Below, piece after piece: positions 343-1,408 of a DNA stretch of 28,643 bases (within the stretch, counting starts at the first letter, position 1; every line of letters begins with the position of its first letter). The translations under genes were made by a program, and so were the position numbers. The notes beneath the pieces were generated by a model. That model was not told the origin of the DNA, made no database searches, and saw only the letters and a list, made by a program, of their open reading frames with translations. The DNA comes from Bdellovibrionota bacterium (GTDB lineage Bacteria > Bdellovibrionota_C > UBA2361 > OMII01). Location of the stretch: the NCBI GenBank assembly GCA_044345405.1, contig JBIJBE010000044.1:1-28643 (forward strand), in the 5' to 3' direction.

Positions 343-744
343 TGGAGGTGGGGGGAATCGAACCCCCGTCCGAGAAGCCATTAGAAGAGCTCTCTACACG
401 TTTAGTACGTTGAAAATCTCATCGGCATAGCGTCAACGTACACAGCTATCACCGACCAGCTCCTGTTTATTTCCCCATACACCCCGCAGCGCGAATGGAT
501 GAGTAGCCCGAGAAAGTTAAGCTTTTAAGGAATTACGGGCGCGTTCCCTATCAGCCGACTAGGCACTTGTGGTGGCTAGTCTAGTGCGACTTAGGCAGCA
601 AGTGCTACTGGAGCAGCATTGCGCGAGAAGTCAGCGTGAATAACGTTATTTGCAGTTATTCTTTTCCGATTTTTTACCAGGCCATCGGAACCCTGGACGT
701 GCAAACTTATCCTTTGTGAATCCCGTCGAAACCTTTACACCCCC
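343..744 (-). ncRNA. ssrA: tmRNA (transfer-messenger RNA), one-piece, ~402 nt, 3' CCA not encoded
   Basis: Minus-strand 5' end GGGGGUGUAAAGGUUUCGACGGG; 3' end GGACGGGGGUUCGAUUCCCCCCACCUCCA with a T-arm. The acceptor stem GGGGGUG/CACCUCC carries the alanine-identity G3-U pair. An internal tag ORF ends in ALAA-stop, and the gene lies downstream of smpB. Confidence 0.97.
591..653 (-). other. tmRNA tag reading frame, (A)ANNVIHADFSRNAAPVALAA*
   Basis: Resume context AAUAACU-GCA, then 20 codons ending in LAA-UAA. Confidence 0.9.
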
Positions 745-842
745 CTAAAAACTGAAACTCCCGAAGGTCCAGGGTCGAGAGAATCGAGACCTTGGCCGTC
801 ATTCGCATTATGGCGCAGCCATATGCGAATAGGAACAAGACC

Positions 843-871
843 GTGAATCCCGTCGAAACCTTTACACCCCC
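843..871 (-). repeat. Exact 29-bp direct repeat of the tmRNA 5' end (other copy 716-744)
   Basis: gtgaatcccgtcgaaacctttacaccccc occurs at both 716-744 and 843-871. Confidence 0.95.
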
Positions 872-952
872 GTAAGATATTATCCCTAAAAATTACAGCA
901 GCCTCTCAGCTACTCCTCATTCTTATATCATAAATCGCCCGAAGCGATGTTT

Positions 953-1408
953 CTATCTCTTTGACATCGCTCGAGCGATTTCCCTATCGGTCTCTCGCTT
1001 CTTTATATCCTGCCGCTTATCAGGCGCGGCCTTACCTTTTCCTAGGCCTATCTGGAGCTTAGCCCGACCTTTGCTCAGATGAACCTGCAACGGAACGACC
1101 GTTGTTCCCTTGGTCTCAAGCTCCCGCACCAGTCGGTCTATCTCCTTCCGGTGCATCAAGAGCTTCCGCGGCCTTCGGGGATCGTACTCCTTATCCCCAC
1201 TATGCGCATACGGCTGAATGTGCGCGTTCAACAGGAAGAGCTCCCCACGCTGCGGACGTACGTATGCCTCACTGATGGACATCTCCCCCGAGCGCATCGA
1301 TTTTATCTCCGCGCCGGTCAGCACCATACCAGCCTCAAACGTGTCCAAAATATGGTAGTCGAAGCGCGCCCGTCGATTGGCGGCCAGGACCTTTACCTCG
1401 TCAGCCAT
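953..1408 (-). CDS. smpB: SsrA-binding protein SmpB
   Basis: Motifs NRRARFDY, EAGMVLTGAEIKS, RKLLMHRKEI, GKGK..DKR; adjacent to ssrA. Confidence 0.98.
   Translation of the reverse strand: MADEVKVLAANRRARFDYHILDTFEAGMVLTGAEIKSMRSGEMSISEAYVRPQRGELFLLNAHIQPYAHSGDKEYDPRRPRKLLMHRKEIDRLVRELETKGTTVVPLQVHLSKGRAKLQIGLGKGKAAPDKRQDIKKRETDREIARAMSKR

Follow-up and report, generated by a model that had tools for sequence, protein, structure and literature searches.

A REP-like repeat unit between two copies of the tmRNA 5′ end upstream of ssrA in a Bdellovibrionota bacterium, and its probable origin by insertion and duplication

The ssrA locus and its duplicated start

The segment described here lies between smpB and ssrA on the minus strand of a contig of 28,643 nt from a Bdellovibrionota bacterium, and this whole stretch of DNA is referred to as the window. 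The locus contains the following features, in window coordinates; E denotes the repeat family that is described below.

1–295, no strand assigned: separate tandem repeat with an 84-nt unit, 3.5 copies, 100% identical, directly 3′ of ssrA and reaching to the contig end
340–744, minus strand: tmRNA gene ssrA (Rfam, 158.8 bits), with the tag peptide ANNVIHADFSRNAAPVALAA as given by ARAGORN
716–744, minus strand: gene-proximal copy of the first 29 nt, the true tmRNA 5′ end, at the start of the Rfam RF00023 match
745–842, minus strand: insert, one unit of repeat E, composed of the left flank GGTCTTGTTCCTAT, hairpin 1, GACGG, hairpin 2 and a T-rich tail
745–768, minus strand: tail ACCTTCGGGAGTTTCAGTTTTTAG with a weak terminator-like hairpin that is not conserved
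769–795, minus strand: hairpin 2, CCAAGGTC / GACCCTGG with the apex TCGATTCTCTC, from sequence and fold
795–840, minus strand: core of the E unit, found with covariance model R1 (69.1 bits, E-value 4.2e-17)
797–800, minus strand: conserved GACG beside hairpin 1, whose reverse complement, CGTC, resembles the tag of REP repeats of the CGTC type
801–830, minus strand: hairpin 1, ATTCGCATATGG, loop CTGCG, CCATA-A-TGCGAAT, with 12 pairs and a bulged A, from the fold and compensatory changes
843–871, minus strand: displaced upstream copy of the first 29 nt of tmRNA, an exact repeat outside the Rfam tmRNA match
897–914, minus strand: hairpin and T-run between the promoter-like motif and the first copy, with a structural counterpart in the relatives inspected
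922–955, minus strand: promoter-like region, TAGAAA-17-TATGAT at 955–927 plus TGATATAAG, from a motif scan and from relatives
953–1408, minus strand: smpB (Pfam SmpB, 185.9 bits)

The window contains two exact copies of the 29-mer GGGGGTGTAAAGGTTTCGACGGGATTCAC, at 716–744 and 843–871 on the minus strand and 127 nt apart, and none of 100 dinucleotide-preserving shuffles contained such a repeat even with up to three mismatches allowed; an exact repeat of the tmRNA start at this distance had already been reported in an initial sequence-only reading of this DNA. The same reading saw neither a T-arm nor a 3′ acceptor strand in the segment, and in agreement with this, the Rfam tmRNA match (158.8 bits, model positions 1–374) is confined to 340–744 and excludes the upstream copy, with no further RF00023 match in 745–871 even at E-values up to 10. 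According to ARAGORN, 745–871 also contains neither a tag reading frame nor pseudoknots of a tmRNA-like RNA. The promoter-like motif that had been noticed upstream of the first copy is indeed present as TAGAAA-17-TATGAT at 955–927, and its −10-like part, TATGATATAA or TATAAT, is found at the same place in 7 of 7 relatives inspected, irrespective of the presence of the insert. ARAGORN calls a 530-nt tmRNA gene at 342–871, thereby taking the upstream copy as the 5′ end, as it also does in two relatives, and the tag-coding part of this call (219–281 of 530) lies inside the downstream gene. The permuted-tmRNA model of Rfam gives matches of 39.4 and 25.7 bits here, which is below its gathering score of 47. 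Modules related to the 84-nt repeat on the other side of the gene were seen 3′ of ssrA in four relatives (G011, G014, G002 and G012).

Short repeats can confuse assemblers, and the contig ends in repeats about 340 nt away, so that an assembly artefact has to be considered. However, five independent assemblies share the architecture with species-specific differences, and most of the stretch is present in lake-water DNA, as 14 DNA runs contain a fraction of 0.73 or more of the words sampled from 340–1000. DNA run X7 yielded a 158-nt contig that corresponds to 715–872 with no differences and thus contains both copies, the insert and one unique base on each side; it extends 30 letters beyond each junction, one letter below the 31-letter rule for a formal bridge. 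We regard the chance of an artefact as negligible. Six RNA runs hold 0.39–0.45 of the same sampled words, and contigs from three of them cover the region from 342/352 to 666/681, ending short of the tmRNA 5′ end.

The 98-nt insert between the copies is a unit of repeat E, as evidenced by family searches and by orthologous units in four other genomes. The minimum-free-energy fold of 746–871 (−43.0 kcal/mol) contains the central hairpin and all outer pairings that had been proposed from the sequence, yet this fold as a whole is unremarkable in comparison with shuffled sequences (z = −1.83; 8 of 200 shuffles equal or better). As conserved structure, the outer helices did not hold up: they show zero covariation, and the pairing between the 5′ copy and the insert is weaker in units with a different tmRNA 5′ end (columns 21/94 and 26/89). 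The proposed terminator-like end exists as a 5-pair stem at 773–760 with the tail AGTTTCAGTT, but it is weak, and the units of two relatives (G014 and G019) lack the hairpin and keep only the T-rich tail, so that a conserved intrinsic terminator was not found in these units. The T-run of the tail resembles the native T-run just upstream of ssrA. The apex of hairpin 2, TCGATTCTCTC, is private to units 5′ of ssrA, where it occurs, among the matches listed, in 9 copies (7 distinct) from 5 genomes, and it is complementary to the tmRNA 5′ end. Searches with the covariance models of Rfam 15 returned no match to the insert or the E arrays at E-values up to 10 or 1.

A repeat family at the ends of tRNA and tmRNA genes

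Each E unit has a hairpin of 12–14 bp that contains a bulged A and is flanked by CCTAT and ATGACGG, followed in the description by a second, GC-rich hairpin. The covariance model R1, which was built from five copies of this genome, finds 23 matches in it at E-values up to 2.5e-5, and nhmmer finds 24 units in 10 arrays. Eight of these 10 arrays begin 2–15 nt past a tRNA gene on the same strand, which corresponds to 8 of the 43 tRNA genes of the genome. The 80 loci analyzed in relatives contain 85 arrays, 58 of them directly after a same-strand tRNA or tmRNA gene, 9 at a locus edge and 18 elsewhere, and none of 133 arrays, a number in which some genomes are counted twice, lies directly beside a tRNA or tmRNA gene of opposite orientation. 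Matches to E are present in 48 of 61 related genomes and in 34 of the 35 that belong to the same family, and a search of public genomes gave 109 matching stretches, of which all 80 among the matches listed come from Bdellovibrionota-type MAGs. The GACG that adjoins the stem is at least 80% conserved in 124 unique copies, and the stem columns 12/51 and 13/50 are A-T in 122 and T-A in 103 of these 124 copies, respectively. E arrays were also seen to coincide with contig ends beside tRNA genes. Full-text literature searches revealed no published description of E, and Rfam scans were likewise blank, and E thus appears to be an undescribed repeat family. E is native to the lineage and widespread in it, and in this Bdellovibrionota genus its usual place is a few bases past the 3′ end of a tRNA or tmRNA gene.

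Units stand alone or follow one another as direct tandem repeats, up to 8 in one array, and since the units of one array are near-identical to each other, a CRISPR-like reading of the arrays was rejected. Some arrays hold more than E units. The arrays at tRNA-His genes contain gene cassettes, each enclosed by E and some 12 nt from the 3′ end of tRNA-His, and these cassettes encode BrnT with a CopG-type antitoxin in the present genome and AbiEii/AbiEi with a flippase in the relative G024. In arrays 3′ of ssrA, different modules alternate, each followed by a motif that resembles the tmRNA 3′ end. By eye, a copy of the gene 3′ end within the units is seen only at these two places, tRNA-His and 3′ of ssrA. 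Target duplication as a general rule was rejected, as a comparison of 109 unique segments from 25 distinct gene-end sequences gave 5.94 for cognate and 5.67 for non-cognate pairs (one-sided Mann-Whitney p = 0.098).

Hairpin 1 is kept by selection at orthologous sites, as shown by the flank of an orthologous tRNA-Met gene in 15 species, where 95.6% of the cells pair within the hairpin and 5 of the 12 pairs change on both sides (22 cells), a score that is reached by 0 of 500 shuffles. Compensatory changes in hairpin 1 are also found among the units 5′ of ssrA (between this genome, G024 and G014/G019) and across the E family. Hairpin 1 is the only selected structure of the segment, and it is the one that the segment has in common with the tRNA flanks. 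The stem shows no strand bias, with 10 G-U and 11 A-C combinations among 1488 stem cells, nor do the two strands differ in folding energy, with the sense strand folding better in 115 and the antisense strand in 126 of 244 units, and a strand-specific folding of E was therefore discarded. The role of the hairpin is most likely that of a REP-like element. A role at the DNA level, by recognition in single-stranded or cruciform form, appears slightly more plausible to us than a role as RNA in the gene's trailer. We noticed no resemblance of hairpin 1 to the dif/Xer consensus, and this reading was set aside.

Several candidates for a mobilizing enzyme were considered. This genome has three tyrosine recombinase genes (PF00589); they are on contigs other than that of ssrA, and none is near an array. 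One of the three is an integron integrase (437.8 bits, contig C49), which lies beside different repeats. Integron integrases occur in 35 of 61 relatives, and their presence does not follow that of E: there are 45 E matches but no integron integrase in G001, and G031 has the integrase and no E match. An interpretation of E as attC site was rejected, as in some units hairpin 2 has the RYYYAAC/GTTRRRY motifs in reverse order. None of the 8 Y1_Tnp-like ORFs of this genome is near an E match, and the co-occurrence test for Y1 transposases does not discriminate, because Y1-like ORFs are present in 57 of 61 genomes, with or without E. A phage origin was also rejected: the E pattern was found in one viral contig, and there it belongs to the host flank of a prophage end, in which the displaced 3′ half of a tRNA-Gly gene is followed by E. 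E is thus the native host flank at the prophage end that carries the tRNA-Gly half. The first 20 nt of the tmRNA occur in 9 viral contigs, in 5 of which ARAGORN finds a whole tmRNA gene.

Origin of the unit upstream of ssrA

Related species show the ssrA arrangement again, with 0, 1 or 2 units. One unit lies 5′ of ssrA in the present genome, in G024 and in L119, and two units in G014 and G019, whereas the closest relatives carry none on this side; G020 (97% tmRNA identity), G010 and G011 have a single clean tmRNA 5′ copy and no unit. Conservation is thus partial, with 1–2 units in four other genomes, covariation in hairpin 1 and none in the outer helices. Carriers make up 5 of 21 on the tmRNA tree, and the starred branches of the tree force at least four changes. 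Filled and empty ssrA sites can be aligned with clean boundaries. The upstream copies are identical or nearly so to the tmRNA 5′ end of their own species, and in L119, the two 5′ copies differ at position 28. One second case of this kind is a tRNA-Met gene in another family of the order, in which a 5′ tRNA-Met fragment, E and the intact tRNA-Met gene follow each other, and in both 5′ cases the fragment joins E at the usual left boundary. Integrase islands of the ordinary kind are found at the 3′ ends of tRNA-Met and ssrA in relatives.

We consider it probable, at roughly 60%, that the segment does not encode a tmRNA-like RNA but is an insertion-duplication scar, formed from a REP-like repeat whose usual place is beside tRNA and tmRNA genes. 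One E unit would have been placed between the promoter region of ssrA and the gene, presumably by a single recombination event in which the first 29 nt of the gene, and possibly some 6–8 T-rich bases upstream of it, were duplicated in direct orientation. Candidate routes are a site-specific or Campbell-type insertion via an identity of about 29–37 nt, a two-step template switch, or a tandem duplication of ssrA with E, of which the upstream gene copy was later deleted. Recombination between direct repeats could then have led to the gain, homogenization and loss of units. The unit would be transcribed passively within a long pre-tmRNA leader, and RNase P cleavage at the gene-proximal copy would discard the leader together with the unit. 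Among the four options that had been put forward from the sequence, the scar of a rare 5′-end integration is the only one that fits, but with the modification that the inserted DNA is a native repeat unit and not the remnant of a foreign island.

Several observations are counterpoints to this scar. None of the recombinases could be linked to the event, Y1-like ORFs occur with or without E, and target duplication as a general rule failed its test. The 5′ copies stay identical or nearly identical to the tmRNA, which may reflect selection for an RNA-level role rather than gene conversion; the private hairpin-2 apex is complementary to the tmRNA 5′ end, which may likewise indicate selection at the RNA level; and a 127-bp circle is implausibly small for the classical double-stranded chemistry of integrases.

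If the RNA level mattered, the unit could be a cis-acting element of the pre-tmRNA leader, either because its hairpins provide a processing site that separates the duplicate 5′ strand from the tmRNA, or because the hairpin-2 apex pairs with the duplicate copy (UCGA..GGGA..UC with GA..UCUC..UCGA) and thereby blocks its competition for the 3′ acceptor strand. Its location between a conserved promoter-like motif and ssrA implies that the unit must be transcribed, the pairing of apex and copy is part of the minimum-free-energy fold, the apex TCTCGAnTCTCTCGA is restricted to units 5′ of ssrA (among the matches listed 9, of which 7 distinct), and most of these pairs do not vary among the 7 units of 5 genomes. 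However, no compensatory change is seen in the apex-copy pairs, which are lost and not restored where the tmRNA 5′ end (G019, columns 21–22) or the apex (G014, column 89) differs, the z-score of the whole fold is just −1.83, and the closest relatives manage without the unit; we therefore regard a cis-acting role as rather unlikely. The options that had been proposed for an RNA product fare worse. An upstream copy that serves as alternative 5′ acceptor strand, so that the unit becomes an internal insertion of an isoform of about 529 nt, would agree with the ARAGORN models of this genome and two relatives and with the identity of the copies over the acceptor strand and the start of helix 2. Beyond this choice of the upstream copy by ARAGORN, we found no support for the isoform, as it is only with the proximal copy that the Rfam model gives an end-to-end alignment, some 127 extra nt would be placed inside helix 2, the nearest relatives would lack the isoform, and the copies of L119 already differ at position 28, and it is thus improbable. 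A separate small transcript of some 125 nt, acting as a mimic of the tmRNA start that sequesters SmpB or RNase P, could explain why the 5′-strand copy is exact and preserved and why the unit ends in a T-run. However, lacking a T-arm and a 3′ acceptor strand, such an RNA would offer SmpB no elbow or acceptor helix. Nor is there conservation of its terminator-like hairpin; the insert is of a generic kind that also occurs behind tRNA genes and has the family hairpin as its sole selected structure, and close relatives lack it. A decoy of this kind is very improbable. An attenuator of ssrA is not supported, as the terminal cUUCGg hairpin is not conserved in G014 or G019; moreover, as 1–2 units lie between the sole conserved promoter-like motif and ssrA in five genomes, the unit is probably not an efficient terminator.

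Another question is whether E still moves. An active, non-autonomous cassette would be inserted at tRNA and tmRNA gene ends by an enzyme that recognizes the hairpin and duplicates about 25–37 nt, and the 5′ site of ssrA would be a recurrent target. The clean boundaries of filled and empty sites, the scattered carriers on the tmRNA tree with at least four changes, the shared left boundary in both 5′ cases, the gene-end-bounded cassettes at tRNA-His, the alternating modules 3′ of ssrA, and the REP-like CGTC tag with A/T in the first stem positions all agree with such a cassette. On the other hand, E is vertically inherited at the orthologous tRNA-Met flank of 15 species, the general test for target duplication was negative, no co-occurring enzyme emerged among tyrosine recombinases, Y1-like ORFs and integron integrases, and the near-identity of units within arrays is what plain tandem duplication predicts. 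An active cassette thus seems possible but doubtful to us, to about the same degree as a cis-acting leader element. In a further and slightly less likely version, E would serve as the recognition module through which an undescribed system of structure-specific recombination assembles mini-cassettes into direct arrays at tRNA and tmRNA gene ends. If true, this would be an integron-like or spacer-acquisition-like platform that is spread over many tRNA genes and independent of the integron integrase; it would insert at 3′ ends, and rarely at 5′ ends, with duplication of about 25–37 nt of the target, the toxin-antitoxin pairs at tRNA-His would be among its gene cassettes, and the unit 5′ of ssrA would be a rare off-site product.

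Related systems and implications

Circularly permuted (two-piece) tmRNA genes probably arose by tandem duplication of ssrA and subsequent loss of the outer parts. The present locus resembles them in that a partial tandem duplication of ssrA is tolerated, but differs in that the tmRNA is a normal one-piece RNA and only 29 nt are duplicated. The ssrA islands of Dehalococcoides, which reportedly carry integrases, are another case for comparison. They share with our locus that ssrA is a recombination hotspot with tandem modules that are bounded by gene-end copies (PMC3146451), and in relatives, the arrays on the 3′ side of ssrA resemble them on a small scale. There, however, kilobase islands reside at the 3′ end (PMC3146451), whereas here the units are gene-free, comprise about 100–130 nt, and one site is 5′.

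Displaced 5′ fragments upstream of an intact gene are known, but they are a minor class, with 159 of 3919 islands in the Islander account, compared with 3760 islands with 3′ fragments (PMC4383910). As in Islander islands, an intact gene and its cognate end fragment have the same orientation at our locus, and the 5′ fragment is upstream (PMC4383910). Islander further asks for 2 kb or more of length and for a tyrosine integrase gene within the interval (PMC4383910), whereas here only 98 nt lie between fragment and gene, with neither integrase nor cargo, and the intervening DNA is a native host repeat in one or two tandem units.

The closest similarity of E itself is to the CGTC-tagged REP superfamily (Di Nocera et al., 2013), which has an unpaired CGTC tag, A/T at stem positions 1–2, a stem of 8–9 bp and a CCA tail, and mostly forms head-to-head dimers (PMC3733652). 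Like these repeats, E is a short imperfect extragenic palindrome with a loop of 5–6 nt downstream of genes, it has an unpaired CGTC tag at one end, when read opposite to the strand of the adjacent gene, and A/T pairs at the first two stem positions, and no transposase gene is flanked by E (PMC3733652). In contrast to them, the E stem has 12–14 pairs with a conserved bulged A instead of 8–9, the tail is AGG and not CCA, the arrays are direct head-to-tail arrays and not head-to-head dimers, a second hairpin is present, and E is found almost exclusively beside tRNA and tmRNA genes (PMC3733652).

The duplication has a practical consequence for annotation, as ARAGORN shifts the 5′ end of ssrA by 127 nt here and in relatives. 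For the lineage, our analysis describes a repeat family that rarely lands in front of a gene, together with a copy of the gene's 5′ end. The natural variants with 0, 1 or 2 decoy-like 5′ strands constitute a test of how RNase P chooses the 5′ strand in pre-tmRNA, and the family offers a tractable case in which to study what draws structured repeats and small cassettes to the borders of tRNA and tmRNA genes.

The duplicated 5' end of ssrA and its recurrence

On the minus strand, smpB is followed by a short spacer, the 29-mer GGGGGTGTAAAGGTTTCGACGGGATTCAC with which tmRNA begins, 98 nt of other sequence (745-842), an identical 29-mer, and the rest of the tmRNA.

Features of the smpB–ssrA region
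953-1408, minus: smpB (Pfam SmpB, 185.9 bits)
871-843, minus: upstream copy of the tmRNA 5' 29-mer GGGGGTGTAAAGGTTTCGACGGGATTCAC (sequence reading)
744-716, minus: gene-proximal copy of the 29-mer, continuing into the remainder of the tmRNA (sequence reading)
340-744, minus: tmRNA gene ssrA (Rfam model aligned end to end, 158.8 bits)

Within the window, the 29-mer matches at these two places and nowhere else, and 100 shuffles yielded no match even with three mismatches permitted, so the exact second copy noticed in the sequence-only reading is real. A permissive Rfam scan gave no additional tmRNA match for 745-871. In the ARAGORN model, the upstream copy is the partner of the 3' acceptor strand, which gives a 530-nt gene at 342-871; gene lengths of ~530-553 nt with the upstream copy as tmRNA 5' end are also returned at two other loci (L040 and L119), and the ssrA start in these genomes will be mis-placed by one unit in automated annotation. 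Of the words sampled from 340-1000, a fraction of 0.73 or more is present in each of fourteen lake-water DNA runs. In run X7, a 158-nt contig spans 715-872 without differences, although falling short of a formal bridge under the 31-letter rule, and neighbouring contigs abut at the repeat, a pattern that probably represents the outcome of a k=31 assembly graph for a 29-nt repeat. Contigs of three RNA runs end at 666-681, short of the leader.

The duplication is also recurrent. Among 30 tmRNA loci retrieved from relatives, 25 had a recognisable 5' end. Two copies 127 nt apart are found in G024, as in the source genome (G000), and three copies in G014 (spacings 127 and 127) and G019 (133 and 127), with a single copy in all remaining relatives with a recognisable 5' end; a further MAG (L119) has two. 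The site is cleanly empty in G020, whose tmRNA is 97% identical to that of G000, and in G010 and G011, where the same upstream spacer runs directly into a single 5' end. The five carriers are dispersed over a tmRNA tree of 21 loci: one clade of seven contains four of them, and the fifth belongs to a different clade. At least four changes are required by the well-supported branches of this single short gene tree. The upstream copies agree with the tmRNA 5' end of their own species, as in G019, whose gene and two unit copies all read ...GACTAGATTC; the L119 copies differ at one base. Such identity within species would be expected from gene conversion or recent duplication, given that the repeats lie 127 nt apart, and unit loss as well as changes between one and two units could readily result from recombination between the direct repeats. 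The duplicated block may extend 6-8 bases further upstream, because TTTTTTAC precedes both copies in G024; other species show partial T-run similarity.

Structure and transcription of the leader

The sequence-only reading had listed a series of helices, and all of them are present in the minimum-free-energy fold of 746-871 (-43.0 kcal/mol), but the stability of this fold is ordinary for its composition (z = -1.83), being equalled or exceeded in 8 of 200 shuffles. When the structure was laid on an alignment of seven units from five genomes, all double-sided changes fell within hairpin 1, whose 12-pair stem has a bulged A, or at a single pair at its base (columns 39/77). The postulated outer pairing of the tmRNA 5' copy with the insert gained no support from covariation: its pairs either do not vary among these units or are lost (columns 21/94 in G019; 26/89 in G014), with no compensation. 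Nor did the terminator-like end withstand comparison: its stem is weak, with five pairs, the cUUCGg hairpin is missing in G014 and G019, where the T-rich tail alone persists, and a T-rich tail before ssrA is also seen in species without the insert.

All species inspected have a -10-like motif, TATGATATAA or TATAAT, ~50 nt before the first copy and, behind the motif, a hairpin and then a T-run; the unit is therefore most likely transcribed together with ssrA and not an efficient terminator. If the motif is the ssrA promoter, the pre-tmRNA leader holds a terminator-like structure. The succession of hairpin and T-run between motif and gene is alike in shape in all species inspected, with different sequences.

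Leader feature
897-955: leader hairpin and T-run region; equivalent place in G020, G010, G011, G014, G019 and G024

A tRNA-flanking repeat family maintained by selection

A search of G000 with 740-960 matched the central hairpin on two other contigs, in both cases directly behind tRNA genes (tRNA-His and tRNA-Met). Five aligned copies of this repeat, termed E, share the layout TTCCTAT, stem, 5-nt loop, stem with bulged A, ATGACGG, and a second GC-rich hairpin (hairpin 2); double-sided changes affect 5 of 12 stem pairs among four distinct sequences, giving a covariation score that none of 500 shuffles attains. A covariance model of the E core has 23 matches in G000 at an E-value <= 2.5e-5, and nhmmer finds 24 units in 10 arrays. 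Eight arrays begin 2-15 nt behind a same-strand tRNA gene (Gly x2, Lys x2, Met x2, His, Thr), so that 8 of 43 tRNA genes have an array directly behind them; the ninth is a distal cassette of the tRNA-His array, and the tenth is the ssrA insert. Arrays comprise up to five units in G000 and up to eight in relatives, with start-to-start spacings mostly of ~45 to ~160 nt. The model matches in 48 of 61 related genomes, with 34 of 35 in the same family and a patchy distribution in other families of the order. An exact-pattern scan of public genomes, one per prokaryote species, returned 109 stretches, and the 80 listed are all from MAGs titled Bdellovibrionota or Bdellovibrionales, or carrying older or vaguer labels for such bins. 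These 80 loci hold 85 arrays, 58 directly behind a same-strand tRNA or tmRNA gene, 9 at the locus edge and 18 elsewhere; in the relatives' loci, where some genomes are counted twice, no array adjoins an opposite-strand tRNA or tmRNA gene. No Rfam family matches E. Contigs frequently break at or just behind array-bearing tRNA/tmRNA genes (G031:C8 end, G006:C190 start, C37 and C82 ends in G000), so that the number of E units per genome is probably underestimated, also for G031, where the count is zero.

The units 5' of ssrA form their own subfamily (nine listed copies, seven distinct, from five genomes) and share a hairpin-2 apex peculiar to them. The most closely related units at other sites have GGCCAAGGGC..GCCCCTGGACCCC, a type found in units directly 3' of ssrA in G006, G001, G003 and G020, and also behind tRNA-Ala.

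Orthologous tRNA-Met loci were compared in G000 and 21 relatives recovered by pattern, leaving out three further loci that did not match it. E lies directly behind the gene in 15 of the 22; five read CCA and then island-like DNA, which in G001 encodes a Phage_integrase protein (113.5 bits), and two have other sequence. In the 15 loci with E, pairing is intact in 95.6% of stem cells and double-sided changes affect 5 of 12 pairs (22 cells); the score is reached by 0 of 500 shuffles, and shifting partners by one column cuts pairing to ~46%. At a prophage end in a viral contig, E follows a displaced 3' half of tRNA-Gly(GCC), and it is therefore host flank, not phage DNA. With its compensated stem at orthologous loci, E is thus a mainly vertically inherited element, selected for structure.

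The folding molecule may be DNA or RNA. RNA stems normally tolerate G-U far better than A-C, yet the 1488 stem cells of 124 unique copies, in an alignment fitted to the model, comprise 1459 Watson-Crick, 10 G-U, 11 A-C and 8 other cells, a symmetry that leans toward a DNA-level role of the hairpin. Of 244 unique units, 115 have the more stable fold on the sense strand and 126 on the antisense strand. The fixed orientation in the tRNA trailer fits an RNA role equally. As in the CGTC-tagged REP superfamily, whose features include an unpaired CGTC tag followed by A/T pairs, the opposite strand of E opens with unpaired CGTC and then A/T pairs; stem length, bulge, tail and direct-array organisation differ (PMC3733652).

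Origin of the ssrA arrangement

A similar rearrangement occurs in a genome of another family of the order, where the first ~33 nt of tRNA-Met are followed by E and the intact tRNA-Met (L110, the same place as L038). The displaced fragment is itself split by a 42-nt insertion (L110:1610-1760, minus) of two short GC-rich palindromes (CGTCATC..GATGACG and CGCCCCG..CGGGGCG), which points to a further small palindromic insertion family. Behind tRNA-His in G000, a gene downstream of dprA (L003, contig C57:21192-24231; L099 in G024), each of three E copies is preceded by the last ~8-12 nt of the tRNA. One interval encodes a BrnT toxin (88.9 bits) with a CopG-type antitoxin, and the corresponding G024 interval AbiEii/AbiEi and a Polysacc_synt flippase; the cassettes are each delimited by ~12 nt from the tRNA-His 3' end plus E, with no integrase inside. 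Successive small modules of three types lie 3' of ssrA in relatives. One type is E and another makes up the 84-nt repeat of the window, and each module is followed by a motif resembling the tmRNA T-loop-to-3'-end.

Repeat 3' of ssrA
1-295 (and 256-322): 84-nt tandem repeat, 3.5 copies, 100% identity, directly 3' of ssrA and reaching the contig end

Related modules (CTTCGC..GGGAGCTACGT.TGGC.AGCCA...AGCTTTAGCGAAGG) lie behind ssrA in G011, G014, G002 and G012, and a piece of the repeat is nested within E units on G000 contigs C8 and C18. Ordinary integrase-bearing islands directly 3' of ssrA and tRNA-Met (L049 in G022; L119; L220 in G001, also G012 and G029) restore the CCA end and carry the arm-like direct repeats GTGGTACACC and GTGCCAAC. 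The gene-end copies at L110, at tRNA-His and 3' of ssrA raised the suspicion that every unit carries a target duplication; across the tRNA arrays this was negative (5.94 cognate vs 5.67 non-cognate, p = 0.098), and the pattern is real at particular loci only.

The ssrA arrangement resembles Campbell-type or site-specific integration in its order of gene-end copy, insert and gene-end copy, and in the clean empty site of close relatives, and islands with a 5' gene fragment upstream are known but rare (159 of 3919; PMC4383910). However, the interval consists of 98 nt of native repeat without an integrase. None of the three tyrosine recombinases of G000 lies near an E array. One of them is an integron integrase and has a cassette region beside it, where many small ORFs and 47-nt repeats ending ..TTAAC (L191) have the look of a cassette array; as a partner of E it was rejected, since the family is present in 35 of 61 relatives without co-occurrence with E. 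Y1-transposase-like ORFs are ubiquitous (57 of 61 relatives).

Recombinase and transposase-like genes of G000
C49:17633-18661 (L188:1134-2162), minus: integron integrase (TIGR02249, 437.8 bits, cut-off 265)
C18, C43, C52, C26, C67, C69, C22, C15: eight frames (seven of 326-357 aa, the other of 186 aa) with a partial Y1_Tnp (IS200-like) domain

Three routes would yield the identical product: a small E-containing molecule could have inserted via 29-37 nt of identity, replication could have undergone a two-jump template switch via T-runs and the 5' region of the gene, or a tandem ssrA-E-ssrA duplication could have lost positions 30-to-end of its upstream copy. In both 5' cases, ssrA and the L110 tRNA-Met, the gene fragment joins E at its usual left boundary, which argues mildly that E behaves as a discrete module.

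A dedicated role as tmRNA mimic, attenuator or isoform, as envisaged from the sequence, is not supported; the unit might still act in cis by preventing the duplicate 5' strand from interfering. On the best reading, the arrangement is an insertion-duplication scar that the pre-tmRNA leader carries along passively. More speculatively, E could mark a recombination system for mini-cassettes at tRNA/tmRNA gene ends. The insert itself is one unit of an apparently undescribed, selection-maintained, REP-like repeat flanking tRNA/tmRNA genes in uncultured Bdellovibrionota.
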